IMG/VR virus record: IMGVR_UViG_2791355084_000002
Span: 1-64,000 of that record
DNA: 64,000 bases
Direction: 5' to 3' (one strand)
Source of the DNA: a virus
Lineage: Duplodnaviria; Caudoviricetes
The position numbers and the translations under genes were made by a program. The notes under the pieces were generated by a model, which worked only from the letters and a program-made list of their open reading frames with translations, did no database searches and was not told the origin of the DNA. Below are positions 671 through 60,030 of this stretch, one piece after another (within the stretch, counting starts at the first letter, position 1; every line of letters begins with the position of its first letter).

Positions 671-703
671 CTCGTCAACTAACCTGTTACGTTAATTGAA
701 GTA
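671..703 (-). repeat. Family-1 palindromic cassette-boundary site
   Basis: Minus strand reads tacttcaattaa-cgtaacagg-ttagttgacgag, the same architecture as the sites at 30.9-38.8 kb, co-oriented with the adjacent gene. Confidence 0.65.
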
Positions 704-1979: not shown

Positions 1980-2396
1980 ATGAAAACAGACACATTATAT
2001 ACATCACTCGTAGGCGGCTCCATGGCAGGGGTCGCCTATTTTGTTGGTGGCATTGACCATTTAATCAAAGCATTCGTTATTTTTATGGCGATTGATTATA
2101 TTTTAGGCGTTATGGTTGCGTTTGTTGTGAAAAACGTTGATAGCAGAAAAGCCTTAATAGGTCTGTTTAAAAAACTGGCGATGATTTTGATGGTGATTGC
2201 TGCAGTACAACTGGACTTGGCAACTGACAGTGGGAACTTTATGCGCAATGCCATGATTCTTTTTCTCATCGGGATGGAAGGAATCAGTATGATTGAGAAC
2301 CTTGGAAAGTTAGGGTTGAAAGTCCCGAAGTTTTTAACAAACGCTTTTAAGCAACTTCAAATCGACAATGATGATAAAAAGGATGATAAACAATGA
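1980..2396 (+). CDS. Phage holin (toxin secretion/phage lysis holin family)
   Basis: DYILG, EGISMIENLGKLGLKVP motifs; directly upstream of the endolysin. Confidence 0.9.
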   Translation: MKTDTLYTSLVGGSMAGVAYFVGGIDHLIKAFVIFMAIDYILGVMVAFVVKNVDSRKALIGLFKKLAMILMVIAAVQLDLATDSGNFMRNAMILFLIGMEGISMIENLGKLGLKVPKFLTNAFKQLQIDNDDKKDDKQ

Positions 2397-3088: not shown

Positions 3089-3217
3089 ACATAGTACAAA
3101 TACTTGTCTTGTTGACTTCAATTATAGAAATTGCAAAACCTAGGTGTTCATATGTAAAAGGCTGCCAAATGAATTTCATTTGGCGCCTTACTGTTTTGAG
3201 CATTCAAAGAACCTATT

Positions 3218-3448
3218 TTACCATTTTAATTCTGGATATATTTCTGCGATTTTCATACCTTCAATTGTTCCTTTTTCAAGTAGTTCTTCATAGCCATTAA
3301 ATTCTTGAGAATACTGATCTTTAACTCTTGATAGATAAGATTTACCACGATTATGACTTATCCAATATTCCTCACCTTTATAATAAAAATTCAGTTCATC
3401 ATTCATTTCGAGAAGGCTTTTAAACTCTAAGTACTCTTTTTCTGTCAT
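3218..3448 (-). CDS. Small acidic protein, probable orphan toxin-immunity protein
   Basis: aaggag RBS; preceded by a toxin-like C-terminal remnant HDWTGTHRGDPY*. Confidence 0.5.
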   Translation of the reverse strand: MTEKEYLEFKSLLEMNDELNFYYKGEEYWISHNRGKSYLSRVKDQYSQEFNGYEELLEKGTIEGMKIAEIYPELKW

Positions 3449-27142: not shown

Positions 27143-28343
27143 TGGTAGAGCTCACACCCAAACAAAAAGAGGTTATGGACTGTTTTATTCATGAGAAACC
27201 GAAAATATTGGCTGCTAGTGGCGCAAAGAGGGCGGGTAAGACTTTTATTCTTATACTGCTTTTTTTAATGCACATTGCAAAGTTTGAAAACAAAGGGCTC
27301 TCTTTTATTATTGGTGGATCCACACAAGCAAGTATTCGAAGGAATGTTCTTGATGATATGGAGGCTATTTTAGGCAAAGAATTAAAGTTAGATAAAACAA
27401 ATGCCGTCCGGGTTTTTGGTAATAAAGTGTACTGCTTCGATGGTACAAATGCAGATGCTTGGAAAAAGGCTCGTGGTTTTACTGCAGCTGGAGCATTTTT
27501 GAATGAAGGTACGGCATTGCATGACATGTTTGTCAAAGAGGTCATTTCACGATGCTCGTATCCTGGAGCTCAAATGATACAAACCCAGAAAATCCTGCAC
27601 ACCCGGTTAAGACAGACATTATAGACAATGATGGTCAATTACTGGATAGCGGAAGGTTAAACATCAGAGTTTTTCATTTTACTTTGTTTGACAATATCTT
27701 TCTTGATCCTGAATACGTTGAGTCCATTATTGCTTCTACACCTTCAGGCATGTTTACCGATCGCGACATTTATGGTTTATGGGTAGCAGCCGAAGGGATT
27801 GTATACAAAGACTTTAATGAAGATCGTCATTATATTTCCAGTGAACAGTTTAATAAACTCAACATCGTTAAATACTTTGCTGCTGTAGACTGGGGATACA
27901 ATCACTTTGGGGCGATGGGTGTATTTGCAGAAGATGAAAAAAGGAACGTTTATTTTTGTGAAGAACATGCTAAACAATATGAAGAAATTGACTACTGGGT
28001 GGCAGTTGCGAAGGATATTAGCAAACGCTATGGTAATATTAATTTTTATTGTGATTCGGCTCGACCTGAGCATGTAAAACGTTTTAGACGTGAAGGCTTA
28101 AGAGCATTCAATGCGAAAAAGAATGTAATATCTGGGATTGAAGAAGTCGCCAAAATGTTTAAAATAGGGCGGCTTTTTATTGTTGAAGATAAAGTAAAAA
28201 GGTTCAAAGATGAAATATATCAATATGTATGGAATGGCACAACTGGTGAACCAATTAGATTATGGAATGACGTACTAGACATGATTCGTTATGGTATCTA
28301 CACACATTATCAAAAAGCAATTCTCAAAGGGAAAAACCGATAA
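27142..28343 (+). pseudogene. terL: PBSX-type terminase large subunit, frameshifted near 27575
   Basis: GAKRAGKT ATPase half and DTNP...DWG...DSA nuclease half lie in different frames. Confidence 0.85.
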
Positions 28344-28355
28344 GGAGGTGTCAGC

Positions 28356-29768
28356 ATGAATGAATATATCCAATACATCGATGGGAATGGTATTTCGCCT
28401 TTGTTACTTGATAAGTTAATAAAAGAAACACAAGCAGAACGAAATAAACGATTACTCAACTACAACCGCTATAAAGCTGAAGCAGTGCCCATTTTAACAC
28501 GTAAACCTGCAGACTACGCCCTAGGCAATGCACATGTACAACGAGTGGATGATAAAGTGAACAACACGCTAAATAATCCACTTGATGCTGAAATTGTAGA
28601 CACGAAAGTAGGCTATATGTTCGGTAATCCAATTTCATATGTGGTAGATAAACAAGCTCAAAGCCTTAAATCATTAACAGAGGCCATTGAGCTTTTTAAT
28701 TTGCGAAATTCGATTGATGACTTGGATAGTGAATCTGGGAAGAAAACGGCTATTTGTGGCTATTCTGCTAGGTTACTTTACATTGACACTGAAGGAAATG
28801 AACGTGCGATGGTTATTGATCCATGGGAGACAATCATCCTTTCAGAAACTGGAGAAGTAAGTGAACCTAAATATGGATTTCGCTATTTTAAAAGCGCAGA
28901 ACTGAATGCTGAAGGGGAAAAAGTAGAAATTGAGCAGCTGGTATTTTACGATGCTACAACTGAAAAACTCTACACTCGTGCAGATAAAGATTCATCTTTT
29001 GTACTGAAAGATGAGCGCAAACATTTATTCGACTACTGTCCTTTATTTGGGATTTCAAATAATGAGGAACTGCAGGGCGATGCGGATAAAGTGTATAACT
29101 TGATTGATGCATACGATCGCACTTTATCAGATGCTTCTAACGAAATCGAACAGTGGCGTTTAGCGTATTTAGTACTTAAAGGCATGGGAATGGATGAGGA
29201 AGATGCACAGAAGGTTGCACGCACTGGTATTTTTGAGTTGATGGGTGAAGATGACGACATTAAATATTTAACCAAAGAAGTCAATGACCAAATGATTGAG
29301 AATCATCTAAATCGTTTAGAGGAAAATATCATGCGATTAGCTAAAAGTGTGAACTTCAGCGATGAAGCGTTTGCCGGTAATACAAGTGGCGTGGCTATGA
29401 AGTTTAAACTGATGGCACTTGAGAACAAATGCAAAACAATGGAGCGTAAGTTTACTACTGCTCTACGCTATCAATTCAAAGTGTTGTGCAGCGCATGGGC
29501 AAAGAAGGGGATCTGCGCGAAAGATGATTACTTGAAACTTTGGTTCGAGTACAAACGAAACGTTCCTATGGATTTATTATCTGAGGCACAAGCATCACAA
29601 GCATTAAAAGGGCTAGTGTCAGAGCGAACACGACTTTCTAAGATGTCGATTGTGGATGATGTGGACTATGAGCTAAAAGAGATAGAGAAGGACACTAAGG
29701 TGTATGGCAAAGACTTAGAGGACTTAGAGGACTTGGATGACGATCCTGAAGAAGTGGATAAACTATGA
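28356..29768 (+). CDS. SPP1 gp6-like portal protein
   Basis: IVDTKVGYMFGNPI, NNEE, SGVAMKFKL. Confidence 0.92.
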   Translation: MNEYIQYIDGNGISPLLLDKLIKETQAERNKRLLNYNRYKAEAVPILTRKPADYALGNAHVQRVDDKVNNTLNNPLDAEIVDTKVGYMFGNPISYVVDKQAQSLKSLTEAIELFNLRNSIDDLDSESGKKTAICGYSARLLYIDTEGNERAMVIDPWETIILSETGEVSEPKYGFRYFKSAELNAEGEKVEIEQLVFYDATTEKLYTRADKDSSFVLKDERKHLFDYCPLFGISNNEELQGDADKVYNLIDAYDRTLSDASNEIEQWRLAYLVLKGMGMDEEDAQKVARTGIFELMGEDDDIKYLTKEVNDQMIENHLNRLEENIMRLAKSVNFSDEAFAGNTSGVAMKFKLMALENKCKTMERKFTTALRYQFKVLCSAWAKKGICAKDDYLKLWFEYKRNVPMDLLSEAQASQALKGLVSERTRLSKMSIVDDVDYELKEIEKDTKVYGKDLEDLEDLDDDPEEVDKL

Positions 29769-30776
29769 ATCAGCAAGAGATTAATAAAATCCTAGATGAA
29801 CTGGAGAAGAAGGCTGAAAAAGACATTAAAGTGGTCTTTAATAAGCGTTTAAAATCCATCCTCGACCAAATGCTGCAGATGCATCGTAAGTTTGGTAAGA
29901 ACGGTGAAGCCACTTGGACTGACGTCAATAAATACAATCGCTTCAATCAAGAAATGAAGCTAATAGCTCAAGAGCTCAATGCGGATTATAAAGCAATTAT
30001 TAAGCTAATAAGAGCGTCAGAGGAACGACTATACATTGAGAGATACTTTAATGATGGCTTACCTGTTAGAACAAGCTACAGGCGAAGAAATGGGCTTTGT
30101 ACTGCCTTCAGTTGAAACAGCTCTAACTAATCCAGTTGAGTTTTTAACACTTCCGAAGGTATTTGAAGCCCACAGGAACGACATAATCAGACGGTTAAAC
30201 ATCGAGATAGCGCAAAGCCTACAAGCTGGCGAAAGCTACACGGAAATGGCTTATCGTATAGAACAAGCAATGGGCTGGACCAAGAAGAAAGCCATCCTTG
30301 TGGCTCGAACTGAAGGTGGTAGAGTACGGTCACAAGCCGATTTAGCTGTAGAAGAGCAGGCTAGTAAAACCGTTCGGCTAACAAAGGTGTGGATGTCGTC
30401 ACTTGATACCAGGGTTCGTAAGTCTCATCGCAAGTTAGACGGGCAAAAGGCTGATAAAGAAGGCTATTACCACTATGGTAAGTGGAAGTCAAAAGCGCCA
30501 AGGTTATGGGGCATTGCATCCATGGATATACAGTGTCGGTGTCATTCGATTTACTTGGTGAATGGAAAACTACCCGAATATAGACGAGGCAAAGACTACA
30601 TGGATGATACGTACCAAAAGAAATTAGCAGCTCGTATAGATGCTTACATGGAGGATTTAGGGCTAACATATAGACAGGCGTTTAACAAAGCTTATAAAGA
30701 AGTAAATCCACCAAGTGTAACAGTACCATTCATGAGCTTTGAGGATTGGAGAAAGCAGTTTAGTGGTGAAGGGTGA
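29765..30776 (+). pseudogene. Minor head (SPP1 gp7/MuF-like) protein, +1 frameshift near 30048
   Basis: An extra t in tactttaatgatg splits ERY/LMMAYL; ARTE, D.RVR.SH, QCRC motifs in the second frame. Confidence 0.8.
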
Positions 30777-31082
30777 GTGAAGCTAAATATATTTTCTAAA
30801 TAAAGCTTGATAAAAATCACCTCGTTGTTTTTTCTTAGAGGTGATTTTGTTTTTGGGTATTTATGTTAATATTGAATTGATTTTCAATGTTATTTATCTT
30901 TTGTTCCATAATCGGGCAATATTGCTGAATAAAGGTGATTAGTCCTTATAATAGTGGTTAGTAGTGATGGGGCGGATAAAAGGTTGTATTAAAGAACCAT
31001 AGACCTTACCACACATCGAAATATAGCATGTTTATAGGGAAATAGATAAGATTATTTTTTATAATAAGGAGGAAATTTAATT

Positions 31083-31595
31083 ATGGATTTATTGCACCCT
31101 ATATTCGGAGAGTTAGAGTTAAATGAATTTGAAGAATACGAAGCAATTAGACTTATAAAGTTTTCAGGATTAGAAAAAGAAGTGAAAATAACTTTTGACG
31201 ATGAAATCAACGAGAAACATTGTCAAGCATATCAATATTTTATAGAAAATTTAGATAGAATAACTCCGGAAATAATACAGTCTATGATTGAATATCAGAA
31301 TGAATGTCATGATTACACTGACTATACAGCGAGTTTCAAATATTTTGAAAATACCAATGATGTCTTAGGTACCGAGCTTTTTGAAATTGTTCTTCAAACC
31401 GTACTTCATGGAGTAGTTACGGATTCAAACCTCTATCATAAAGTAATGAAAGAAGAACTAAATGGCACGGAAGAAGAAAGATACGTAGTGCTATTGTTTG
31501 AAGCAAAATGGGTAAATGATGATTATCACATCTTAAGTGTTGCTTTAGCGAATGAAAAAGTGATTTATGTGACAGATGAAAATATTACAATTTAA
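31083..31595 (+). CDS. Acidic hypothetical protein, immunity-protein-like
   Basis: HPIFGEL start, very acidic, strong RBS, between repeat sites. Confidence 0.6.
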   Translation: MDLLHPIFGELELNEFEEYEAIRLIKFSGLEKEVKITFDDEINEKHCQAYQYFIENLDRITPEIIQSMIEYQNECHDYTDYTASFKYFENTNDVLGTELFEIVLQTVLHGVVTDSNLYHKVMKEELNGTEEERYVVLLFEAKWVNDDYHILSVALANEKVIYVTDENITI

Positions 31596-32337
31596 TTTGG
31601 TGATTATGAGCATAATACGAAGTTTATAATTACCAGCTTATCATAAAAACTATATGTAAATGTTTTGACTCATCTTATAAATTTACATTAATACAGAAAT
31701 AAAAAGAGTAATAGGATAAGTCTATCGTTGGAATAGGGATATTATCAGCACATCTGATAAGGAGATTTACATATAAAAAGGGTCGCAAATTGCAATCAGC
31801 ACGGCGAACCGTATCAAAGTTAAATATCAAGGCAATGTGGTAATAAGGTTTTATATTCGTCATTTAGTAATCTGGCGCGATTCTGTAATAAGTATCGGCG
31901 CTAGCAGGAGTTTTAATTCAATAAATGTTATTTAATATAAAGCCCTTCATATTGAGTTACTTTTTAATTTACCTAAAAAAGTAGGATTAGATATCACAAG
32001 GAACGCGCATTTATTATTGCTAGTTTGGATATTGAGTTGGAGAAAGAAGCGGAGTCTGTGAAGAAGTAATCGCGGAAATTTACTTAAACTAGTGGCGCAG
32101 GTTAGTTAAATCGTTTTGTTTAAAGGTTATTCAACAATCGGGCCATTTAATTGAATAACGCTTTTAAATTAAAAATAGGGTTTTATGTTAATCTTGATGT
32201 GAATTTGTGAAATAGTGTACATAAGTTAACGAGGCAGGTTAGTTCAATAAGAAATTTCAAAGAAATAGATGAATTAATACTAAAATACGGTAAAATAATT
32301 AGATGAATAGTCTGTTTTTTACATAGGGGGATTTTAT

Positions 32338-33294
32338 TTGAAAAATTATAAAAAAACGGTTATCGTATTTCTTCTAATAATTACGTTGCTAACACTTACT
32401 TCCTGTACACAAGCTGAAGAATCGAAAGCAAAGCAAGATATTGAAAGTATCGTTTTATCATTCGAACACCCACAAACAGGTCAAAAATTTAAAATAGTCA
32501 ATGCCTATAAACTTTATCAAAACTATGCAGATAAAGTTGAAATTAATCCAGAACAATCACAATTGGAAATTTATAATGAAGAGGTAATTAAACCAATATA
32601 TAGTGTTTGTTTTGAGAATGGTGAATATCCTAATATGGCAGATGAAGTTCTAAATGTAGCTCCTGACCTTTTAACAGAAAATCAAATATTAAGTGAAAAA
32701 ATTGATAGGGAAGAAACTGAAAATATTATTAAAGAAGCTCTTTTAAAATCTTCTGACCTTCTTCCATCTGGAAAAGAAACAACTGCATGTGTTTTTCCTG
32801 CCACAAATACAAATATACTAATGACTACAGTGGGGGCAGGAAAAATAATAGTACTTTACAACAAATATTATAACGAAGATGTTTTAAGGTCTAGCATGGC
32901 TCACGAATATCATCATAGTGTTTGGACAGAGAAGTACTTACGTAATGCTCCACCTTTTACTGTTTTGGATCATCTAATATTTGAAGGAAAGGCATTTATG
33001 TTTGAAAAGTTAGTTTATCCTGATATTGATATTGATTTTGCTCCAATTTATTCAACATTCAACAATTATTATTGGTCAAAAATTGTATTAGATCTTGAAA
33101 AGTATGACTTTAATCGGGCTTACGAAATTATTCTGGGAGGTAATGGCCTTCCTAATCGTTATGGTTACAGTGAAGGCTATAAAATGGTAAAATCCTATCT
33201 TGATTTGCACCCAAACGTAACCCCAGAGGAATGGACTGCCCTAAGTGCAAAAGAAATTTTTGAAAAAGGAAATTATCTTGAAAACTATAAATAA
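32338..33294 (+). CDS. DUF2268-like Zn-dependent peptidase lipoprotein
   Basis: Lipobox LTSC; HEYHH, IFEGKA, GYSEGY. Confidence 0.8.
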   Translation: MKNYKKTVIVFLLIITLLTLTSCTQAEESKAKQDIESIVLSFEHPQTGQKFKIVNAYKLYQNYADKVEINPEQSQLEIYNEEVIKPIYSVCFENGEYPNMADEVLNVAPDLLTENQILSEKIDREETENIIKEALLKSSDLLPSGKETTACVFPATNTNILMTTVGAGKIIVLYNKYYNEDVLRSSMAHEYHHSVWTEKYLRNAPPFTVLDHLIFEGKAFMFEKLVYPDIDIDFAPIYSTFNNYYWSKIVLDLEKYDFNRAYEIILGGNGLPNRYGYSEGYKMVKSYLDLHPNVTPEEWTALSAKEIFEKGNYLENYK

Positions 33295-33684
33295 CAAATC
33301 TATGAACTTATAGACATATATACTAGGGGTAAATATATGTTAATGATTAGTTATAAATCATTGAGTTGCGTATGCAGCTCTTTTTTTCTTATTGAACTGA
33401 GGGTGCTTTAGTTCAATAACGATCTTCAACAAAAGGGCGCGATTGTGTAATAAGGATCAGCGCACGGTTTCATTAAAGAGCCAGAGTGCGAAATAAGGGA
33501 TATAACCAGATTTATACGAATTCACAACGGTAAACAAAGAAATATCCCCAAACGACGCTTTGGAAAGGTTATACTTCAACTAACGGCACAGGATAGTTGA
33601 GTTAGCAAATATAGCTGCTAGTTGTTGGAGTAGTAATTATATAGCATTGTTCAAATAATGATGCCAGGAAATGAGGAATAACCG

Positions 33685-34209
33685 ATGTCAAAAACGGTAC
33701 TTGATAAAGCTAAGAGGATTGTAGCAGGAATCGAAGTTTATCCAGGATTAGCTAAAGATTGGAGTAAAGATAATTATGACAATTATTATCTTTACTTTTC
33801 AAATCCAGATCCTGAAATACGAAAATATTCGTTACTTGTTTTTTTTGTGGGTCTTAGTAATTGGCAATTGGGGTCAGCTTTTATCTTTAGACCAATCAAA
33901 GAACTTAAAAAAGACGAAGATTTCGATGGAAATAAAGTGTATCGTTTTGAGGATTATGTTCGATCATTTCTCGACAATAGAGAAAACATTAAACAAGAGT
34001 TCCCATATTTATATGATAATTTGGTTTGGTATTTACTTAGGTTAGATAATCAAAAACATTTTGAGTATATATTTAGATCCGTTGATAAGAAACTATTCAT
34101 TGAACTTAGACAAGTGTTAATTAAATCGGGTATTGATGCTAACATATTACCCAACAATTTAAATAACATATTAAGAGAAGTAGGAATTACTCCATATTTT
34201 GTAGATTAA
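33685..34209 (+). CDS. Hypothetical protein (cassette gene)
   Basis: 174-aa ORF with gagga RBS between repeat sites. Confidence 0.65.
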   Translation: MSKTVLDKAKRIVAGIEVYPGLAKDWSKDNYDNYYLYFSNPDPEIRKYSLLVFFVGLSNWQLGSAFIFRPIKELKKDEDFDGNKVYRFEDYVRSFLDNRENIKQEFPYLYDNLVWYLLRLDNQKHFEYIFRSVDKKLFIELRQVLIKSGIDANILPNNLNNILREVGITPYFVD

Positions 34210-34422
34210 ACATAATTTTTAAACGAACGGCATTCCTTATTGATCAAACATGCGCTTTAGTGCAACAAGGATTTATAAAGTATTCATAACTAAACCTAAT
34301 AACGTTCCCAAATTAAAGTTTGAACTTACACCAAAAAGTTACGAATGTTTTAATAGGTGTGTCAAAAAATAATAATAGTCTACGTCTTGAAAAATTTACT
34401 AAATAGAAAGGGAAGATGTATT

Positions 34423-34728
34423 ATGATTGTTAAAGTCGGATTTGAATATGAAGATGACATAGAGTACATGATTTGTCTTGCAAAAGTAGGGAGAAATATT
34501 AACCGATTACAAGAGGAATTTTGGGATTGGCTATTTGATAGAAAGAACCAACATCCTTATTGGGAAATACATTATCAAGATGAAGAAGGAAATCCTGTTT
34601 ATGGAGTGAGTTACCGTACAGATGCTTTTGTATATTGGTTGAACAAGGTGAAATTTAATAAAGGCAAGAATGTCGCGAGATTAATAGAAGTTCCAAAGAC
34701 ACCACCTAAAAAAACAATTAGGTTTTAA
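34423..34728 (+). CDS. Hypothetical protein, immunity-like (cassette gene)
   Basis: W-rich (FWDWL, HPYW, FVYWLN); flanked by ~50-bp direct repeats. Confidence 0.6.
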   Translation: MIVKVGFEYEDDIEYMICLAKVGRNINRLQEEFWDWLFDRKNQHPYWEIHYQDEEGNPVYGVSYRTDAFVYWLNKVKFNKGKNVARLIEVPKTPPKKTIRF

Positions 34729-34895
34729 AGGTAATAAATTATTCAATTTTATTCAAAATAACGTTCCCAAAGGAAAGCTTAGACGTACACCAAAAAGTCA
34801 CAAATGTTGTTAAATCAACGTTTGTGACTTTTCTTATGCGCATTATTTATTAAGCTTTTTATGCAAAGTGCAGTTTGACTGGTTAAGTATTATTA

Positions 34896-35267
34896 TTACG
34901 TTTCATGTTTTAAAATTTCCCAAATATCACGTAATCTCTGAACTGCCTCTTCTTTCGAATAAGGAAGTTCTTTGTAAAACTTCTGTAGTTCTGGATTGTA
35001 AGCAAAGGCTTGAAAGTCTGCATCTTCTTCTTGAGGAGCAAGCTTTTGTTTTTCTGTACGACCAAGAAGGTAATCTATTGAAACATCAAAAAGCTTAGCG
35101 ATATTACTTAAAGTGTCAATAGGAGGCATTTTTGTGCCATTTTCATAAGCTGTATAAGTAGTTCTTGCAACACCTATTTCTTTAGCAACAAATGATTGGG
35201 TATATTCAGGCTTTGATTTCTTTATATTTTCACGAACCTTTTTTAAACGTTGTGCAAGAATATCCAT
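34896..35267 (-). CDS. Second-switch XRE repressor
   Basis: HTH plus the FQAF..P.LQ..YK.LP...EE..QRLR..WEILK tail. Confidence 0.88.
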   Translation of the reverse strand: MDILAQRLKKVRENIKKSKPEYTQSFVAKEIGVARTTYTAYENGTKMPPIDTLSNIAKLFDVSIDYLLGRTEKQKLAPQEEDADFQAFAYNPELQKFYKELPYSKEEAVQRLRDIWEILKHET

Positions 35268-35314
35268 TTATACGCACATCCTTAAATATTATTTGGCTAC
35301 TTATGATTGTATAT

Positions 35315-35440
35315 GTTACCTAAAGGAACTTCTATATTTAATTATTTATTGTTCCTTAAAGAAACTTTAATATTCAAAAAGTATTGAAATGTTCCTTATA
35401 GGAACTTATAATTAAATTAATTAATGTTCCTAAAAGGAAC
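35315..35440. promoter_or_regulatory. Switch 2: four GTTCC-N5-GGAAC-type operators and a promoter
   Basis: Operators at 35315, 35351, 35391, 35426; ttgaaa(35384)-17 bp-tataat(35407). Confidence 0.8.
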
Positions 35441-35459
35441 TTTTGAAAGGGGAGAGGTT

Positions 35460-35669
35460 ATGAGAAGATGGCTGAAACAGATCCGAATAGCTCAAGGAAT
35501 AAAACAGGAGGAAATAGCTGATTCTGTGGACATTTCACGTGGGTATTATGCAAACATTGAACGGGGTGAAAAAACACCATCAGTAAAAGTGGCGAGAAAA
35601 ATAGCAGCTTATCTAAAATTTGATTGGACAAAATTCTTTGTACAAGAAAAGGAGGAAGTAAATCTATGA
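35460..35669 (+). CDS. Cro-like HTH regulator (switch 2)
   Basis: QEEIA...ISRGYYANIERG.KTPS. Confidence 0.85.
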   Translation: MRRWLKQIRIAQGIKQEEIADSVDISRGYYANIERGEKTPSVKVARKIAAYLKFDWTKFFVQEKEEVNL

Positions 35670-36448
35670 ATCTTACTTTAGCAACACAAAATCAATTTAA
35701 TTCAGTTATTTGTGATTTTTACCAAAATGAAAACAATGAAGTATTTATGACAATTAACCAGATAGCTCAGGCGCTTGAATATGCAAGTAAAAAGGGCGTT
35801 GAAAATTTAGTAGCTAACAATGAGTACCTTAGAGATGAAGAATTCTCGACTATTGCAAAGGTATCTACAGGTACCCACGGAAAAGGGGGTACCCAAGAAA
35901 CCCGTATTTTTACTGAGGATGGTATATATGAAGTAACAATGTTATCTAAACAACCTAAAGCAAAAGTATTTAGAGCTTTTGTTCGAAAGACACTTAAATC
36001 TTTACGTAAAGGTGAAATGATTTTAGTTCAACCCCAAAAGGTAGATACTAAACTTGAGGTACAACGTATGCGAGCTGAGGCAATGTTGAATAACAGCCGT
36101 ACACGCCAAGCTAAATTAATTCTGGACATGCAGAAAAATAAAATCTTATCTCCCGTAGCTGTTGAGTTGTTACAAGTAAATGCTTTAGAGGTTTTAAGTG
36201 ACCAAACAATTGATTACCGTCCAGAAGTAAAAAAGACATATACGGCTAGTGATATTGGTTCAGAATTAGGAATTTCACCGCAAAAGGTTGGTAGTATTGC
36301 AAATAAACATAACCTTAAAACCGATGAATACGGTTATTTTGCTTTGGACAAGTCACCATATAGTAATAAACAAGTAGAGTCTTTCCGTTATTACGAAAAA
36401 GGTCGTCAGAAGATACATGAAATTGTCCAGGGGAAGTTGGTTAACTAA
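35666..36448 (+). CDS. BRO-N family antirepressor
   Basis: MT..QI..ALEY, FTEDGIYEV.MLS.QPKA..F. Confidence 0.82.
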   Translation: MNLTLATQNQFNSVICDFYQNENNEVFMTINQIAQALEYASKKGVENLVANNEYLRDEEFSTIAKVSTGTHGKGGTQETRIFTEDGIYEVTMLSKQPKAKVFRAFVRKTLKSLRKGEMILVQPQKVDTKLEVQRMRAEAMLNNSRTRQAKLILDMQKNKILSPVAVELLQVNALEVLSDQTIDYRPEVKKTYTASDIGSELGISPQKVGSIANKHNLKTDEYGYFALDKSPYSNKQVESFRYYEKGRQKIHEIVQGKLVN

Positions 36449-36570
36449 ATGGGGTACAAAAAAAGAAAAGCCATGCTTTAAGCGGCAACTTAAAACATGA
36501 CATAAATCTGAGTGACATCCACCCATATCATAAATCTATTATAACCGAATATCGTTATATTTAGAAGTGG

Positions 36571-36882
36571 ATGTTACTCCCAGGAGGGAGAACTGTGCAA
36601 ATACCAAGTGAAAGTTGTTTACAAGCCATGATCCATTATTCAGAGTTTTATAATCTTTCACCACCACTATCGAATGATTTTGGCGATTGGTGCAAGAGTG
36701 TGGTGAATGAAATGGGTGACAGAGAAATACATCTACTTTATTTAGCGGTGAATGCTGCATTAAATAAAGGACTTGGTTGTCAAAAGTTAATGAATATAAT
36801 GTTTCACGAACTCCAAAGACGTAAATCGGAAATAGAGTTTTACGTGACTTATGCAAACGCATTATCACAAATCAAGACCTAA
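36571..36882 (+). CDS. Hypothetical protein
   Basis: ORF downstream of the antirepressor; aggaggg before an internal GTG. Confidence 0.5.
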   Translation: MLLPGGRTVQIPSESCLQAMIHYSEFYNLSPPLSNDFGDWCKSVVNEMGDREIHLLYLAVNAALNKGLGCQKLMNIMFHELQRRKSEIEFYVTYANALSQIKT

Positions 36883-37153
36883 ATTGTAAAAGTCATAAAA
36901 TAAAAGGGTGATATTTAACACCTTTTTATTTCTTGTTCAATAATCATGCCTTAGGAGATAATATCTTCATTTTTACATTTCTTTCACAGGATTATAGATT
37001 TTATGGAACAATTGGTATAATTTATTAGTAGGAATTTAAAAGGGAAGATAAAATGGGTAAAAGAGTCCATCTCTTTGTTAGGGAAGGAGGTACTTTAAGG
37101 TTTCAATATTAGTTAGATGGAATGAAATAAATCATATAAAAATTTTGGGATGA

Positions 37154-38686
37154 GTGATTTTATTAATGGCATTTATATATCGATATGAATTGAAAAATAA
37201 AAATTTTAGACAAAAAATAAATTTAAAGCTGCACGAAGAAAACATAGTTAATGCAATAAATCAAACATTTGGTAATAATGTATATTCTTTTAAGGTTTAT
37301 TCTGATTACTTTGAGTTTAGATTGCGACACAGTATAGCAACTAACCTCGAATTACAAAAATTAGGTAAAAACATAGTCAATTCTGATGCGGAGTTAAGTA
37401 GCTATAAGAAGGTTTATAAAAAGAATTCACAGTTATTTAGAAGAAAAAGAAGTTCATATTATGCATTTTTAGAGGATATAGAATATGAGGATCAAATATA
37501 TTATTTAAAATTTGATTTGGTAGACCAAGAAGATAGTGACAGAATCCAAAATGAATTTGAGGAGAACCAAACTACGAAAGGAGATTTGTTAGGAACACTA
37601 AATACATTTAGCATGATTGTGGAAATAAAAGAGCTGGACTTGATGGGGAATAAATTAAAAAGAATTTTAAATATTATTAATGAAGAAGCTTCAAATAGAT
37701 GGTATTTACTAAATGGTAAGCATGTTAAAAGTGGGAACTCTTTAATTTTTCTAGATTATACTGGTAGTCAAGAAATTGTATCAAACTTTATGCTATCTTC
37801 AATAGAAGACTTAGTAGAAACAGCTCAATTAGAAAGATTTTATAGCTTAGAAGGTATACAACACGAAGAAAAAACAGATTTTAAAGAAAACTATGATGAT
37901 TTCTTTATTGCGGTTTACAATGTTGGGCAAGGATTATGTTCAGCAATCTGTAATTATAATTCACAACCAATTGTATACTTTGATTTTGGTGGTGGAGAGC
38001 GAAGAGATGCAGTAACCTATCCGCCAAATGGAATAGAATATTGCTTTAGTCTTAAACCTAAAATAATATTATCACATTGGCACAGAGATCATTGGATTGG
38101 CGTCCATTACTGTAAGGATGCTTTAAAAACAGAGTGGATAGTTCCAAATCAGAAAAAGGGACCTCAAGTTACTAAACTATGTGCGGATATATCAAAATAC
38201 GGTAAGTTGACCGAGTTAAGCTCAGGAACTTTCAAAACGCCTTTTGGTAGCTTATTTATTTGTAATGGGGATAATAGACACTACCATAATAACGGGATAG
38301 GTTTGTTAGTTGAAAATAAAAGTAATGAGAGATTTCTTTTGCCAGGGGATAATAGATATCAATTCATACCTGATCAATTCTTATCTAATTTAAATGGACT
38401 CGTGGCTTCACACCATGGAGGAAATTACTTCAAGAATAATTGTGGTAAAAATAAGATTCCGCTGAATGTTAAAGAAGGTAAAATTGTGTACAGTTACGGA
38501 AAACATGCAAAGTTCACCCCGAAATTTAATTCCCATAGTCACCCTTCTTATACTGGTGATTATATTAAATATAAGTGGGTAAAATCTTTGGAACTACATA
38601 CACCGGATGGTCACCGTGCAATTGGGGTTAATAATACAATAAATAAATGTAACTGTGGGTGTGATTTAGAAATTAAATATCCATAG
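37154..38686 (+). CDS. Unknown N-terminal region plus a ComEC/Rec2-like metallo-beta-lactamase hydrolase domain
   Basis: NVGQG, DFGG, SHWHRDH, LPGD, SHHGG, HSHP. Confidence 0.75.
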   Translation: MILLMAFIYRYELKNKNFRQKINLKLHEENIVNAINQTFGNNVYSFKVYSDYFEFRLRHSIATNLELQKLGKNIVNSDAELSSYKKVYKKNSQLFRRKRSSYYAFLEDIEYEDQIYYLKFDLVDQEDSDRIQNEFEENQTTKGDLLGTLNTFSMIVEIKELDLMGNKLKRILNIINEEASNRWYLLNGKHVKSGNSLIFLDYTGSQEIVSNFMLSSIEDLVETAQLERFYSLEGIQHEEKTDFKENYDDFFIAVYNVGQGLCSAICNYNSQPIVYFDFGGGERRDAVTYPPNGIEYCFSLKPKIILSHWHRDHWIGVHYCKDALKTEWIVPNQKKGPQVTKLCADISKYGKLTELSSGTFKTPFGSLFICNGDNRHYHNNGIGLLVENKSNERFLLPGDNRYQFIPDQFLSNLNGLVASHHGGNYFKNNCGKNKIPLNVKEGKIVYSYGKHAKFTPKFNSHSHPSYTGDYIKYKWVKSLELHTPDGHRAIGVNNTINKCNCGCDLEIKYP

Positions 38687-38979
38687 TTGTGATAGAATAT
38701 ATCAATATTTATTTTCTTTTTGTAAATAAATGTTATTATTTTTTATTCAATGTTCGGATGCGATTATTGAATAAGCATCACTGTTCTTCTAAAGCTAACG
38801 GGGACTTCAGTTCAATAAAGTTCATCTAATTTTAAAAAACTTTCATAAAGTTAAAAAGCCATTCTTTTAGAGTGGCTTTTTATTTTGTCTTTCCTCTCGC
38901 AGACGCTATAAAGAACGGGAAAAAATATTATCGAACAGTTTAGGGATTCCATCGGATAACTAAATTGGGCAAGGAGGAC

Positions 38980-39645
38980 ATGATGAAGAACAATCCATTT
39001 TATTTAAAAACCTTTTTACCTTTAGCTATTCAAATGTTTTCTGATGGTGGGGAAGGAAATCCTTCAGGGGATCATCCACCACAAGGAGATGGCGGAAACG
39101 GACAAGGGGCTACATTGACACTTGAATCGGTTCAATCATTTTTAAACGACAATGATGAGGGTAAGAAATGGTTGCAGTCATTTGCTGATACACGTGTAAC
39201 GGAAGCGATTAAAACGTATGAAACGAAAACTCTCCCAAAGAAACTAGAAGAGGAAATTACAAAGCGTTACCCACCGGAAACGGAGGAAGCGAAACAGTTA
39301 CGTGAGTTAAAGGCACAATTTGAGCAATCGCAAAAAGAAGCTGCACGTGAAAAGTTAATTAATCAGGCGTTATCTATTGCAACTGAAAAGCGTTTACCAA
39401 GTAAGTTAGTAGCGTTCTTTGTCGGTGAAGATGCTGAAAAGACAACAGCTAATTTAGGTGTACTTGAAGCGGAATTTAACGCAGCTGTTCAGGCAGAAGT
39501 GGATAAACGCTTTAAAGATGGTGGAACGCCACCACCACAAAAAGGAGGGGGCTCAACAACATTGACGAAAGAAGCTGTACTGAAAATGACAACGGATGAA
39601 ATCAATGCGAATTGGGATGAAATCGTGAAAAACAATTTACTATAA
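38980..39645 (+). CDS. Capsid scaffold protein (DUF4355-like)
   Basis: LAIQMFSD N-terminal motif, D.RV..A, position before the capsid gene. Confidence 0.85.
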   Translation: MMKNNPFYLKTFLPLAIQMFSDGGEGNPSGDHPPQGDGGNGQGATLTLESVQSFLNDNDEGKKWLQSFADTRVTEAIKTYETKTLPKKLEEEITKRYPPETEEAKQLRELKAQFEQSQKEAAREKLINQALSIATEKRLPSKLVAFFVGEDAEKTTANLGVLEAEFNAAVQAEVDKRFKDGGTPPPQKGGGSTTLTKEAVLKMTTDEINANWDEIVKNNLL

Positions 39646-39674
39646 TCGATTAGCAGTAAGGAGGAAATATCGTT

Positions 39675-40541
39675 ATGACGATTAAAAACTTTATTCCAAC
39701 AATTTGGTCAGCTCGACTTTTGCACAATTTACAAAAATCATTAGTATTCGGACAAGCTAGTGTCATCAACCGTGATTATGAAGGTGAAATCAAGGCTTAC
39801 GGTGACACAGTAAAAATCAATGGTATTGGTGCGGTATCCGTAGGTGATTATACGCGAAACAAAGATATGAAGGATCCAGAGGAACTGACAGATCACACAC
39901 GTAATTTAGTGATTGACCAATCGAAGTTTTTCAACTTCCAAATTGATGATTTAGATAAAATTCAACAAAATCCTAAATTAATGGATCATGCAATGCGTGA
40001 AGCGGCTTATGCCTTATCGAATGTCGCGGATCAATTTATTGCCTCTCATTATGTACATGCTGCTAACACTATTGGTACGGACAAGGATCCGATTCAGGTA
40101 ACGAAAGCCAATGCCTATGAGTACCTTGTGGACCTTTCAACGAAATTGGATGAAGCCAATATTCCGACACAAGGTCGTTTTGCTGTTTTGCCACCTTGGT
40201 ATGAAGGGCTATTATTAAAAGATGATCGCTTTGTTGGTTCTGGTGCTTTGCCAGCAGACGAACGTTTGGTTAATGGTGTTGTAGGTCGAGCTGCAGGTTT
40301 CTTACTTATGAAATCTAATAATGCACCATTTGTTGATACAGGTTTTGAAGGCGTCGTCGCAAACTCAAAAATTATCGCCGGACATAATATGGCCTGGACG
40401 TATGCTGAACAAGCTGCAAAAGTAGAGGGCTATCGAATGGAGAAACGTTTTGCAGATGCTGTAAAAGGACTTCATCTATACGGTTGTAAAGTGGTGCGCC
40501 CAGAAGCTTTAGCAGTACTTTCAGCTAGACGACCAGCGTAA
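39675..40541 (+). CDS. Major capsid protein
   Basis: FIP.IWSA.LL, NRDYEGEI..GDTVKI, GLHLYG.KVVRPE. Confidence 0.9.
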   Translation: MTIKNFIPTIWSARLLHNLQKSLVFGQASVINRDYEGEIKAYGDTVKINGIGAVSVGDYTRNKDMKDPEELTDHTRNLVIDQSKFFNFQIDDLDKIQQNPKLMDHAMREAAYALSNVADQFIASHYVHAANTIGTDKDPIQVTKANAYEYLVDLSTKLDEANIPTQGRFAVLPPWYEGLLLKDDRFVGSGALPADERLVNGVVGRAAGFLLMKSNNAPFVDTGFEGVVANSKIIAGHNMAWTYAEQAAKVEGYRMEKRFADAVKGLHLYGCKVVRPEALAVLSARRPA

Positions 40542-40555
40542 GGAGGGGGTTAAAA

Positions 40556-40708
40556 ATGTTCGTAAAAAACTTAAATACGGGTATCACATGGGCGGTCACT
40601 GAAGAACACGGTGCTCGCCTTTTGCGTACAGAGGAATTTGAGGAAGTACAATTAGAGAAGCCTAAACGTACCATTTCTAAAAAACCAGAAGCAGAAACTG
40701 AAAAGTAG
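40556..40708 (+). CDS. Small head-associated protein
   Basis: aggagg RBS; 50 aa; between capsid and connector genes. Confidence 0.6.
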   Translation: MFVKNLNTGITWAVTEEHGARLLRTEEFEEVQLEKPKRTISKKPEAETEK

Positions 40709-40717
40709 GTGGTCAAT

Positions 40718-41044
40718 ATGTGGCAACCAACTCAAGAAGAAATCGAACAGCTAAAACAGTTAAATGGTGATACAGGAGCTAAGCATGATGCGTTTTATTG
40801 TGCAATGGCTCCTATTTTATTTGAAGTAGCAATTGACCATTGTAACGGTGCGTGGTGTCCTGAAACGATGCCTCAAGGTGTGCAACTATTTATCGCTAAG
40901 GCTATACAATTCAATATGCAAACAACAGGGTTAAAAGGACGTGTTATGGGGACAGTCTCCTATTCTTATGACACAGAGTTTCCAAAAGCCATTTGGACCT
41001 ATTTACGGCCATATAAGAAGGTGAAGTTTCATGCATTACGATGA
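40718..41044 (+). CDS. Head-tail connector (SPP1 gp15-like)
   Basis: GV.LFIAKA, MGTVSYSY, L.PY; synteny. Confidence 0.8.
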   Translation: MWQPTQEEIEQLKQLNGDTGAKHDAFYCAMAPILFEVAIDHCNGAWCPETMPQGVQLFIAKAIQFNMQTTGLKGRVMGTVSYSYDTEFPKAIWTYLRPYKKVKFHALR

Positions 41045-41354
41045 ATTTCCTCATACAGTCGAAGTCGTTGAGAAGCAACGTATTTCTGATGGTGCAGGGG
41101 GATATAAAACGAAGTGGATGCCAGTGGATACAATCGAAGCGTTTGTTGATACACCAACAAGCAAAGAGCATTATTATGCTCAACAGCTAGGTAATCCATT
41201 GCAATGTTACATGTATTACCCCTACAGAACTGATTTAACGTCTAGTATGCGATTACGCTTTGAAGGGGAGATATACGAGTTTGCAGGACGTCCTGAAGAT
41301 CAAGGTGGCCAACATGAAATGATGCGTGTGGCTTTAAAGCTGGTGATGTCATAA
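41031..41354 (+). CDS. Head closure protein (gp16-like)
   Basis: DGAGG...W, P.DQGG; synteny. Confidence 0.8.
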   Translation: MHYDEFPHTVEVVEKQRISDGAGGYKTKWMPVDTIEAFVDTPTSKEHYYAQQLGNPLQCYMYYPYRTDLTSSMRLRFEGEIYEFAGRPEDQGGQHEMMRVALKLVMS

Positions 41355-41779
41355 TGGCTCGAATTACTTTCAGTGGATGGAAATTGTTAAGAGCCGCGCA
41401 ACGTTTTGAAGAAGGGATTTTAGATAAAGTATCCGACATTGTGTACGAGACTGCAAGGCTTATACAAACTGAGGCTAAAGCACTCGCGCCAGTTGATGAT
41501 GGCAGCTTGCGTGACTCTATCGAAATGAAGATGCTAGGGAAGTATAACGCTGTTGTCACTGTAGGGAGCCATTACGCTATTTGGGTGGAATTTGGTACTG
41601 GCGTACATGCAGAGGGGCCAGGAGGAAGTAGAGCCAAAAAGATTCCTTGGACTTATTACAGTGAAAAGTTAGGACACTGGGTAACTAGTAGCGGTAATAA
41701 AGCTCAACCATTCTGGGGCCCTGCAGTTGATGCTGGACAAGCGTATTTTAAAACAGAAATGAGGCGTTTAGGCTTATGA
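41354..41779 (+). CDS. HK97 gp10-like tail completion protein
   Basis: APVD.G.LR.SI, YA..VEFGTG, AQPF..PA. Confidence 0.88.
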   Translation: MARITFSGWKLLRAAQRFEEGILDKVSDIVYETARLIQTEAKALAPVDDGSLRDSIEMKMLGKYNAVVTVGSHYAIWVEFGTGVHAEGPGGSRAKKIPWTYYSEKLGHWVTSSGNKAQPFWGPAVDAGQAYFKTEMRRLGL

Positions 41780-42219
41780 CCAATTATTATGCGCTACCTT
41801 ATTTTGAGTTGCAACAAGCTATCTATCAAAAGTTGATTGCTTGTGAAGCGCTGACAAATATTACTCGAAAAAGTGAAGAGGATTTAGGTGCGTACGATAC
41901 TGTCGATGAAAATACACCTTATCCATACGTAACGATTGCAGAGCCTTATTCATCACCATTTGACACGAAAACGAGCAATATTGAAACGATTTCTTTTACG
42001 ATTCATGCTTGGTGGATGGATAACGATGAGTACAGCGGTAAACGGAAAGTGTATGAGATGCTATCAGCTTCTCAACAAGCGCTGATGGCTCAAAATTACA
42101 AACTTCCAAAAGCTAAAGTGCTAAGTGTTAAAAGGCGTGACTCACGTGTTTTTGATGACAATAGCCCTGGAGTAAAGCATGGCGTCTTAGTCGTGCAATA
42201 TAAAGTGCAGAATATTTAA
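41776..42219 (+). CDS. Tail terminator (DUF3168-like)
   Basis: LQQAIY..L, PYPYVTI, HGV. Confidence 0.8.
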   Translation: MTNYYALPYFELQQAIYQKLIACEALTNITRKSEEDLGAYDTVDENTPYPYVTIAEPYSSPFDTKTSNIETISFTIHAWWMDNDEYSGKRKVYEMLSASQQALMAQNYKLPKAKVLSVKRRDSRVFDDNSPGVKHGVLVVQYKVQNI

Positions 42220-58875: not shown

Positions 58876-60030
58876 TTAGATAATTTCACCTAACAACTCC
58901 GTAAACTTATCATGCATCTTCTCAGTAGCAGCCACACGCATCCCTGAAGTAACATGCAAATAAATCTTAGTAGTAGTATCAGAATTCTTATGCCCAACAC
59001 GATTCATAATAAAGTTTAAGTCCACACCAGCCTCTGCCAGTAGACTAATATGTGTATGGCGGAGGATGTAGGTGCGGAATTGTTTGTTGATGTCTGTGAG
59101 GGCGCCGATGCGTCGGACGGATTGGTTGAGCATTTTGACGGTAGGGGGGATGCCCTCCTTGTCACCGAATACAAAGTCGGACTTAGTCCACTCGCGATAC
59201 TCGCGCCATAGGTAAAGCTGCTTTAATTTCTCCACTACAATATCATCAATATCGACGGAGCGGACGCTGCCTGCTGTTTTTGGGGGAGTGAGCTCGAAGT
59301 CACCCCTTATACTTTTCTTCGCATACACCGTTTTATTAATGTGTATGACCTTCTTCTCCAAATCGACATCCTCATACTTTAACGCAACGGCTTCGCCTGG
59401 TCGCATACCTGTAAAAGCGATTGCGTAGATCAGTGTGCGATATATGATATTACGGTGTTTGTCCACGTAGCTTAAAAATTCCTTTAGTTCATCTGTTTCT
59501 AAATAAAGCTTCGCTGTATCCTCACTGCTTGCTTCCTCTAACGTCATTTTCTTCTTCGGCACAAAAGTAGCCTCAACAGGGTTCATCTCAATCAAACCAG
59601 ATTCCTTAGCATAGGCAAATAACATTTTGGCTGTATTATGAGTGCCACGCAGCGTATTATAGGCTGTTCCATTAGCAAATAAATGATTGAGCAAACCTTG
59701 TAATTCGATAGATGTGATTGTGGTTATTTTCCTTTTCGCCATGTATCGATTGAGTAGGGAGATACAGTAGGCACGATGCTCATTTGTCGTTTCCTTGTTG
59801 CCCTTCATACGGTAGAGCTTTAACCAATCTTGGCTAAATTCTTCAAACGTTATCTTCGCATCAAAGTAATATGCTTTGTTTAATTCGGCTATAACTTTTT
59901 CAACTCTTTCACGTGCTTCAGTCTTACTTTTACCACGACGTGTAATTTGACGGCGTTTGCCAGTGGCAGGATTACGTGGACCTTCACCAGTGCATCGCCA
60001 AGTTGTCTTATTAATTTGAACGAAATGCAT
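58876..60030 (-). CDS. int: Tyrosine integrase (paralogue of 6125-7273)
   Basis: TGMRPGE, YILRHTHISLLAEA, RVGHKNSDTTTKIYLH shared with integrase B. Confidence 0.95.
   Translation of the reverse strand: MHFVQINKTTWRCTGEGPRNPATGKRRQITRRGKSKTEARERVEKVIAELNKAYYFDAKITFEEFSQDWLKLYRMKGNKETTNEHRAYCISLLNRYMAKRKITTITSIELQGLLNHLFANGTAYNTLRGTHNTAKMLFAYAKESGLIEMNPVEATFVPKKKMTLEEASSEDTAKLYLETDELKEFLSYVDKHRNIIYRTLIYAIAFTGMRPGEAVALKYEDVDLEKKVIHINKTVYAKKSIRGDFELTPPKTAGSVRSVDIDDIVVEKLKQLYLWREYREWTKSDFVFGDKEGIPPTVKMLNQSVRRIGALTDINKQFRTYILRHTHISLLAEAGVDLNFIMNRVGHKNSDTTTKIYLHVTSGMRVAATEKMHDKFTELLGEII

Follow-up and report, generated by a model that had tools for sequence, protein, structure and literature searches.

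We analyzed a 64,000-nucleotide stretch of viral DNA (the window), part of the 100,495-bp IMG/VR provirus record IMGVR_UViG_2791355084_000002, in which a preliminary description had noticed an integron-like array of gene cassettes inside the head module of a prophage. The insert, about 8 kb long and flanked by a Mu-F-like minor head gene and the head scaffolding gene, holds 9 clear and 2 weak sites of an arm-core-arm type, all on the + strand. These sites are real, abundant and oriented; their cores are where joints lie, complete cassettes are found again at other loci, and their presence is associated with that of a tyrosine recombinase. We put the probability at roughly 55% that the array belongs to a dedicated site-specific cassette system with an Xer-like enzyme as its catalyst. 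A wider proposal, which we hold tentatively and at somewhat short of even odds, is that of an integron-like system that evolved independently in Lysinibacillus, its relatives and some Bacillaceae plasmids, with hundreds of lox-like sites per genome, many arrays polar with respect to replication, a small Xer-like recombinase that is carried on a mobile cassette and acts at a fixed position of the core, and a flow of cassettes among chromosome, plasmids and prophage hotspots.

Each site is 32-34 bp long and consists of two arms of 12-13 bp around an asymmetric, GC-rich core of 7-9 bp (Table 1). The nine sites that the preliminary description had listed lie where it had placed them, on the + strand, and its count of at least 11 copies is completed by the two weak sites. 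Its back-to-back sites with no open reading frame (ORF) between them were likewise recovered, as three pairs (33389/33422, 38743/38787 and 32127/32218). A covariance model (CM) was built from 10 sites of the window and therefore necessarily re-finds them; when the whole record was searched at E ≤ 1, it returned beyond the training sites only reverse-strand readings of the same places and a weak site at ~32076-32121, and the other weak site (31855-31899, E 0.96) appeared in the window search only. The CM gave no match at E ≤ 10 between site 7 (34232-34276) and site 8 (38738-38782). A count of the 8-letter word that ends the right arm was uninformative (15 matches against 10.6 expected).

Alignments between related prophages, metagenome contigs and host chromosomes place the ends of homology within the GC-rich cores, at the CG with which the left arm closes or beside it, and the cores are where the preliminary description had proposed to look for breakpoints between related prophages. 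Against the related prophage L009, whose flanks are 86-99% identical to those of the window, homology stops at 30924 and restarts at 33436; against L010 it stops at 30917 and restarts at 33425, and L010 has at this place one hybrid site in which the left flank and arm are of the site-1 type and the right arm and flank come from site 5. Metagenome contigs of two studies (X1 and X3) join 32145 to 33436 with 554 other letters between them, and this insert is the ~550-bp cassette that L009 also carries in place of the peptidase cassette (cassette 2). In one X1 contig, 33429 is followed by 13 other letters and then by a return to 31874, which gives a different order of modules. An unselected analysis of 450 distinct sites yielded 285 pairs with one shared flank (186 left only, 99 right only), grouped into 11 clusters with a shared left flank and 12 with a shared right flank; 264 of the 285 pairs are compatible with one crossover between the G of the core CG and the next letter, as against 235 when the point is moved one place to the left and 229 when it is moved one place to the right. 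Where the arms of the partner sites differ, the joints map to the same 1-2 core letters.

The resulting modules start with core and right arm and end with left arm and CG, and sharp core-bounded ends were found in two module families with many copies: the ORF-less module at 32141-32231 (20 fetched loci in 17 genomes) and the recombinase module described below (11 loci). Across the copies of the former, column identity is ~0.4-0.7 in the left arm of site 2, reaches 0.8-1.0 at 32140, declines in site 3 where core and right arm have their variable letters, and is ~0.25 beyond 32251. The -10-like motif of this module may be a promoter, and the neighbours upstream of its copies often end in a GC-rich terminator.

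Recurrence of separate cassettes, which the preliminary description had suggested looking for at other loci, was searched in 370 genomes, and the same cassettes were found with the same end points, namely in sites 1, 2/3, 4/5 and 7. Positions 29856-31902 recur in one genome (G070, locus L108) at 91% identity, with 96% over the 30890-31902 part, and the copy stops at the weak site. Positions 32140-33456 recur in G132, G154 and G054 at 91-93%, with homology beginning at 32137-32141 (site 2) and without a Mu-F or scaffold match in the fetched 1.5-kb flanks; in G147, G145, G037, G159 and G158, homology to cassette 2 begins at 32219-32234 (site 3). Positions 33401-33583 recur at 77-87% in six genomes (G151, G152, G153, G072, G370 and G039). 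Cassette 3 recurs at 99% in G157 and at 90-94% in G075 and G129, and in G157 the 99% match covers 33436-34312, starting at 33436. Downstream of site 7, homology in other genomes begins at 34247-34258, and 34257-34760 recurs in G154 at 87%.

The site family is not peculiar to the prophage. In genome searches, which scored 41-150 of ~2000-3400 first-look candidates per genome, the CM matched 39-94 places in each of four Lysinibacillus genomes (150 of ~3000 candidates scored) and, of 121 sampled genomes of the host's family, matched 73, the best score (52 bits) lying above that of any training site. An order-level search with the CM drew on genomes already present in the family sample and so gave no further information on range. 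Four complete genomes contain 104, 126, 103 and 27 copies of an exact 12-letter pattern of left arm plus core, which represents one subtype (type B), compared with 2, 1, 1 and 0 matches of its reversed control; copy number is roughly a hundred or more per genome. Among 301 genomes sampled across the class, more than 4 pattern matches were found in three only (16-18 each), all from the host's family; the others had 0-4, like the control. By BLAST, parts of 32120-32260 matched 58 plasmid records (from Bacillus, Priestia, Cytobacillus, Peribacillus and other genera); some of these plasmids are from outside the family, and related sites therefore reach beyond it on plasmids.

On chromosomes, the sites are intergenic and occur in dense gene-site-gene-site arrays, for example 24 sites in 19.4 kb with 23 on one strand; two further 20-kb stretches have 17/17 and 15/15 on one strand. 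Over seven stretches together, 96 of 105 sites lie on the main strand of their array versus 132 of 174 crude ORFs, and in locus L159 the strand of the array is kept by 11 of 13 sites, whereas the ORFs there divide about evenly between the two strands. With the sites of the insert all on the + strand, the non-random core orientation that had been reported holds well beyond this prophage, up to a near-total polarity by replichore. In G097 (dnaA at 331), the 54 forward copies of the pattern are confined to 0.28-1.79 Mb and the 50 reverse copies to 2.11-3.35 Mb, and 99 of the 100 listed copies in G075 obey the same polarity; with dnaA at the coordinate origin, the pattern is the leading-strand sequence in 104/104 copies of G097 and 99/100 listed copies of G075. 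G097 contains at least 15 arrays, in the terminus-proximal half of the chromosome. A polarity this close to absolute could reflect a strand-specific mechanism or, just as well, orientation-preserving insertion together with selection for whole arrays that follow the direction of replication. The cargo of the arrays includes GNAT acetyltransferases, glyoxalase/bleomycin-resistance-type proteins, alpha/beta hydrolases, a PF00144 beta-lactamase-family protein, a nucleotidyltransferase, a P-loop kinase, a glycosyltransferase, sigma/anti-sigma pairs and many proteins without a Pfam match. We considered and rejected arrays of immunity genes to polymorphic toxins: the annotated chromosomal arrays show GNATs, hydrolases and glyoxalases and no toxin genes.

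Two variable letters of the core show a preference that differs from genome to genome (mostly GG in G097, mostly CA or CG in G106, mixed in G075), which suggests homogenisation or recent spread within genomes. Genes of IS110-family transposases were seen near sites or modules on two unrelated plasmids, of Cytobacillus solani (L182:6513-7751) and Sporosarcina psychrophila (L185:3992-5194). Elements of the IS110/IS1111 group target repetitive extragenic palindromic (REP) and attC sites, and the two plasmid copies may therefore target the sites described here.

A candidate recombinase was found within the arrays themselves. Two near-identical genes of G075 encode a 279-amino-acid tyrosine recombinase; they lie within arrays, one on either replichore, and each occupies the strand that does not carry the sites. 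The protein passes the NCBIfam XerA-type model NF040815 (224 bits, cut-off 220), stays below the equivalog cut-offs of XerC (202 vs 335 bits) and XerD (207 vs 330 bits), and fails the integron-integrase models TIGR02249 (90 bits, cut-off 265) and NF011946 (57 bits, cut-off 435); its closest solved structures are XerC-like, XerD and XerA proteins, with IntI4 a weak PDB match (4.1e-14). Counting matches at ≥ 54% identity, full-length or fragmentary, we found it in 35 of the 121 sampled genomes. Sites are present in 33 of these 35 and in 40 of the 86 others (Fisher's exact test, p 3e-7), and the recombinase is present in 17 of the 19 most site-rich genomes and in 18 of the 102 others (p 2e-9), both being statistics that ignore shared ancestry. 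Across nine other genomes, full-length copies show 93-95% identity. Sites occur within 1.5 kb of each of the 11 full-length chromosomal loci, opposite in strand to the gene where the strand is clear, and 5 of these loci have a site ~65 bp upstream of the start codon. At the 11 loci, the block conserved with the gene is bounded left and right by site cores, beyond which the neighbours are unrelated from genome to genome, and the recombinase is therefore itself a module of the system. Homologues of 62-95% identity, annotated just as tyrosine-type recombinase/integrase, are present on plasmids of Sporosarcina, Cytobacillus, Bacillus mycoides, Peribacillus and Niallia; the Sporosarcina plasmid has the same layout of recombinase and sites as the chromosomes, and a recombinase homologue occurs together with a site-module match in three plasmid records. 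The co-occurrence of a tyrosine recombinase with dense arrays, as foreseen in the preliminary description, is thus borne out, with the candidate absent from the 100-kb record itself, where only distant phage-type integrases (23-29% identity) were found; it would therefore act in trans.

These distant matches in the record number three (6167-6388, 58933-59151 and G000:C1:75436-75939), two of them in ORFs of 393 and 386 amino acids, which fits the presence of more than one prophage, as the preliminary description had assumed. Separately, four adjacent tyrosine recombinase genes stand beside arrays in G075 (C1:2606934-2611245) and G097 (C1:2451098-2457347). Such array-adjacent trios and quartets are 30-34% identical to the candidate (33% for the G075 genes) and look like separate elements; the four-gene clusters resemble recombinase-in-trio elements.

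The mechanism that we favor treats the sites as double-stranded recombination sites of the lox/FRT/dif type, delimiting exchangeable modules that may be single genes, small gene groups or ORF-less promoter/terminator pieces. We infer that the joints were made by site-specific strand exchange. The point of exchange would be constant, at the core's left edge and directly behind the CG with which the left arm closes; each module would therefore start with a right arm and end with a left arm, so that every site in an array would be a hybrid of two neighbouring modules. From its association with the sites, the 279-amino-acid Xer-like protein is the most likely catalyst, probably supplied in trans by the host from a reverse-oriented module of the same kind. 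The system would be native to the host lineage (Lysinibacillus and other genera of the family) and to plasmids of some other Bacillaceae, and the prophage hotspot between Mu-F and scaffold genes would have taken up a stretch of a host array. The cores differ between partner sites, and for this reason we speculate that exchange may involve one strand pair only and be resolved by replication.

Several findings weigh against this reading, beside the shared ancestry that the Fisher statistics leave out of account. At the level of clusters, the conserved arms mostly limit the resolution of joints to the site as a whole (about -10 to +17) and not to one letter; in two left-shared clusters the break comes 15-19 nt ahead of the site, and in three right-shared ones it is at +5, +6 and +28. 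Among the 19 site-rich genomes, G046 and G093 have no recombinase match at all. G097, with its 104 pattern copies, keeps just a 117-amino-acid piece with a stop. Many other copies are fragments as well, and most arrays may therefore be fossils. The location of the recombinase is by itself weak evidence, because any gene of an array adjoins sites and is bounded by cores, and on the B. mycoides plasmid the two sites near a 64%-identical recombinase share the strand of that gene. Sites that have evidently recombined have unlike cores, which a classical tyrosine recombinase tolerates poorly. The stems of high-scoring sites also covary (82.1% of cells paired vs 74.5% in shuffles, with 0 of 500 shuffles as high, in an alignment that was selected by a structure-aware model), and such covariation could point to a folded substrate.

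Covariation is one of the findings that speak for folded single-stranded DNA (ssDNA): hairpins exposed on the lagging-strand template and cut by an HUH-type or other ssDNA enzyme, or folded recombination substrates like attC or CTX attP. The polarity of the pattern in G097 and G075, stronger than the crude strand bias of ORFs, would suit such a mechanism, and IS608 and ISDra2 target the lagging-strand template, as stated in PMC6006769. The same polarity could arise if the orientation of whole arrays were chosen through gene strand bias. Of 10 sites in the window, 4 fold better than their shuffles (range 0 to -7.3 kcal/mol as DNA), so that part of the earlier term palindromic holds; the other 6 have mutually mismatched arms and appear as hybrids, and in other genomes the sites at module ends often combine one constant arm with a partner arm that varies, many of these sites having arms unable to pair. 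Because exchange in the cores between site subtypes would leave such mismatched hybrids, these argue against an obligatory RNA or ssDNA hairpin. A stem of 12-13 bp is moreover, on general knowledge, too short for two recombinase-binding boxes of the attC kind, and the Y1 transposase domain (PF01797) was not found in G097 and G075, two of the five site-rich genomes searched for it. On balance we consider a folded ssDNA substrate quite unlikely. RNA elements that travel with genes and take no part in DNA exchange (3' terminators or stabilisers, or 5' stabilising stem-loops) would account for the intergenic position of the sites and their usual co-orientation with neighbours, and a T-run follows some type-A copies. 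Both neighbours share the strand of the site at 19 of 37 strongly oriented sites; against an RNA role, one neighbouring ORF is opposite at 13 and both at 5, and the strand bias of L159 likewise belongs to the sites and not to the ORFs. In a terminator scan none of 8 terminator-like hits was a site, ordinary terminators lay beside sites, and the stems are AT-rich, unlike the GC-rich stem and T-run of an intrinsic terminator. Rfam gave no match in the window at gathering scores and chance-level hits only in 30500-39200 at E ≤ 5. With 4 of 10 sites folding, no terminator tail and no Rfam family, a role as RNA or ssDNA hairpin is therefore disfavored and a double-stranded site of the lox/dif type favored; pure RNA elements, whose stabilities would be weak and which would leave the core joints unexplained, we regard as very unlikely.

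We give somewhat more weight to a passive dispersed repeat, still an unlikely explanation, in which sites conserved between genes, possibly as insulators or as pieces of promoter/terminator type, would through their similarity alone be foci for homologous, short-homology or phage-recombinase exchange, with no dedicated enzyme. Precedent comes from the promoter early stem-loop (PeSL) elements of T4-type phages, described in PMC2839356 and PMC4122927 as promoter/stem-loop motifs of variable regions that shuffle genes and give rise to mini-circles; as described there, they too are short, conserved, intergenic motifs at the joints of gene insertion, deletion and replacement in a variable phage region. 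The promoter-like motif in one ORF-less module between two sites, the terminators at the ends of its upstream neighbours, the many arrays without an intact recombinase and the within-site resolution of most cluster-level joints are also compatible with a passive repeat. However, PeSLs combine a strong promoter with an effective terminator and recombine by homology. The sites described here are not terminators, mostly do not fold in the window, are common to the host chromosome and break at a fixed core position, the same 1-2 letters even where arms differ. Partner sites share arms of 12-13 bp and 4-5 core letters, which in general is short for RecA-type exchange, and the strong association with an Xer-like recombinase would be left aside. 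The family resembles REP sequences and bacterial interspersed mosaic elements (BIMEs) in being made of short, extragenic, imperfect palindromes with about a hundred or more copies per genome and lineage-specific variants, and differs from REPs with their associated tyrosine transposases (RAYTs) in having no consistent Y1 transposase, in forming direct and not inverted pairs, in being confined to accessory arrays and in delimiting swapped genes. A link to a RAYT/IS200-like transposase was rejected on the PF01797 result.

A site-specific cassette system with an Xer-like catalyst can also be set beside systems already known. LoxP and FRT sites have two ~13-bp inverted arms and an ~8-bp asymmetric spacer that sets direction. 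The preliminary description had recognized this tyrosine-recombinase architecture, and we found the same arm-spacer-arm layout with joints within the spacer, catalysis by analogy with Cre and Flp being a prediction; those systems use one or a few sites with identical spacers, whereas here there are hundreds of sites with variable cores. As the preliminary description had also noted, the sites do not fit attC, dif/pdif or CRISPR repeats. A CRISPR array has identical repeats and short spacers at regular spacing, and here the repeats are divergent and 33 bp to 4.5 kb apart. AttC sites have two box pairs (R''-L'' and L'-R'), are ~57-141 bp long and act folded with extrahelical bases, whereas the present sites have a single arm pair in 32-34 bp. 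The likeness to integrons lies in the arrays of mostly single-gene, co-oriented cassettes split by short imperfect inverted-repeat sites, in the accessory cargo (GNAT, glyoxalase/bleomycin-resistance type, nucleotidyltransferase, beta-lactamase-family and many unknowns), in a co-oriented array beside a divergent tyrosine recombinase gene that is directed away from the cassettes with a site just upstream of it, and, as in attC-site clusters that have no integron-integrase (CALINs), in the many arrays without an intact recombinase. In integrons, however, the joint is in the right-hand GTT box and the cassette keeps nearly the whole site at its 3' end, whereas here it is at the left edge of the core; the candidate, at 90 bits on the integron-integrase model (cut-off 265), is not an IntI; an integron has one platform, compared with at least 15 arrays on the G097 chromosome; and the recombinase here is a module inside arrays, with arrays on both of its sides. 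The dif/pdif modules of Acinetobacter plasmids are similar in carrying accessory genes between short Xer-type arm-spacer-arm sites in varied contexts and in implying a Xer-family enzyme. The pdif sites are 28 bp long (11-6-11, XerC-spacer-XerD) and alternate in orientation around modules, whereas the sites here measure 12-13 / 7-9 / 12-13, are all direct repeats within an array, form dense chromosomal arrays in Bacillota, and have as their candidate enzyme an extra, single Xer-like paralogue and not the host XerC/XerD pair. A literature search (supplements aside) returned no description of this repeat, of such arrays in Bacillota or of a role for the recombinase, and the cassette system of Lysinibacillus and relatives is apparently undescribed.

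Integrons are extremely rare in Firmicutes according to PMC9024848. For the shuffling of small accessory genes in these bacteria there is no comparable explanation. If our reading is right, a whole bacterial family would have a system analogous to the integron, built from different parts and linking chromosome, plasmids and phages; the uptake of unrelated host genes by a phage structural operon at a precise spot would be explained; and a simple new pair of recombinase and site would be at hand, along with arrays that form a catalogue of cassettes, many of unknown function.

In the prophage, the interval between Mu-F and scaffold genes is a moron hotspot. Related Lysinibacillus-type prophages were taken from viral contigs and named Lysinibacillus genomes; where both genes were found, the gap measures 284 bp to 6.4 kb, compared with 8.2 kb in the window. 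These gaps hold many different small genes, and their right end is nearly always the conserved terminator and the scaffold promoter region: a hairpin like that at 38852-38882, with the sequence 3' of it, is kept in most of the 18 gaps printed. Most of these related prophages have no sites. Sites were found upstream of the scaffold gene in L009, L010 and L043 and downstream of the Mu-F match in L054, and L027, L029 and L055 have some elsewhere in the fetched stretch. The cargo of the window between 30.9 and 38.8 kb is mutually unrelated and includes a DUF6985 protein, a DUF2268 Zn-peptidase lipoprotein, three ORFs of no known family, a divergent helix-turn-helix (HTH) pair with a Bro-N anti-repressor, and a 510-amino-acid ORF with a faint metallo-beta-lactamase signal (E 0.1). 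The idea of a cassette system that loads prophages is thus supported as far as sequence comparison reaches, with the correction that the system is mainly one of the chromosomes and plasmids of the host's family, the prophage being one recipient. In the phage collection, megablast of 27500-42000 and blastn of 32120-32260 gave no match, and a tRNA/tmRNA search found none.

Table 1. Sites, modules and bordering features of the window (positions in the 64,000-nt stretch).
Feature	Position	Strand	Remarks
Solitary site	671-703	-	CM 33.5 bits; ~70 bp upstream of - strand VanZ-like ORF (1-600)
Mu-F-like minor head gene	30036-30776	+	Pfam Phage_Mu_F, 3.9e-18; left border of variable hotspot
Mu-F terminator, canonical	30813-30848		Extended -10-like motif follows at 30860-30880, just before site 1
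Site 1	30901-30932	+	CM 40.4 bits; arms mismatched; core CG 30913-30914; folding z +0.23
Cassette 1	30915-31873	+	DUF6985 gene 31083-31595, Pfam 2e-08
Weak site	31860-31892	+	CM 16.3 bits; module joint within core
Weak site	32081-32116 (about)	+	CM 17.5 bits; position weight matrix scan 16.1 bits
Site 2	32127-32158	+	CM 37.6 bits; core CG 32139-32140; folding z -2.56
ORF-less module, cores of sites 2-3	32141-32231	+	Extended -10-like, putative promoter motif
Site 3	32218-32250	+	CM 37.9 bits; arms mismatched; core CG 32230-32231; folding z +0.60
Cassette 2	32232-33401	+	DUF2268 Zn-peptidase lipoprotein gene 32338-33294, Pfam 2.9e-26
Own terminator of cassette 2	33363-33380		Terminator scan
Site 4	33389-33419	+	CM 41.4 bits; good hairpin; folding -6.2 kcal/mol, z -5.84
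Site 5	33422-33453	+	CM 37.4 bits; arms mismatched; crossover between 33435 and 33436
ORF-less 150-bp module, cores of sites 5-6	33436-33585	+	
Site 6	33572-33604	+	CM 36.9 bits; folding z -2.67
Cassette 3	33586-34250	+	174-amino-acid gene 33685-34209, no known family (no match in Pfam or PHROG)
Site 7	34237-34268	+	CM 38.1 bits; arms mismatched; CA replaces CG at 34249-34250
Multi-gene stretch	34251-38756	+	123-amino-acid ORF, HTH pair, Bro-N anti-repressor, 103-amino-acid ORF, 510-amino-acid ORF
Site 8	38743-38774	+	CM 41.5 bits; good hairpin; folding -7.3 kcal/mol, z -4.31
Site 9	38787-38818	+	CM 39.7 bits; arms mismatched; folding 0 kcal/mol
Conserved canonical terminator	38852-38882	+	Terminator scan; right hotspot border in related prophages
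Head scaffolding gene	38965-39645	+	phrog_172, 1.1e-36

The solitary site at 671-703 is inverted and lies upstream of a - strand ORF, as the preliminary description had it; the VanZ assignment of this ORF (1-600) did not hold at the same strength, the match being weak (26.6 bits vs a cut-off of 30.1). The extended -10-like motif that follows Mu-F is also present in relatives without sites. By eye, degenerate copies of the site were seen between and after two cargo ORFs of the Mu-F/scaffold gap in L024, L013 and L035, and in L034 a stretch holding one such copy is deleted.

Within the multi-gene stretch at 34251-38756, the blocks of homology shared with L009, L010 and L043 are interrupted near 34739-34784 and 36913. 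Direct repeats of ~55 bp (34298-34353 and 34755-34810) flank the 123-amino-acid ORF (34357-34728), and 34254-34353, which runs from the right half of site 7 through the first of these repeats, recurs in many genomes at 80-95%. Positions 34896-36448, in the middle of the head module, carry a repressor-like HTH gene (34896-35267, - strand), a cro-like HTH gene and the Bro-N anti-repressor; this block is kept at 95-99% in L009 and L010 and could be a regulatory mini-module or the remnant of another element.

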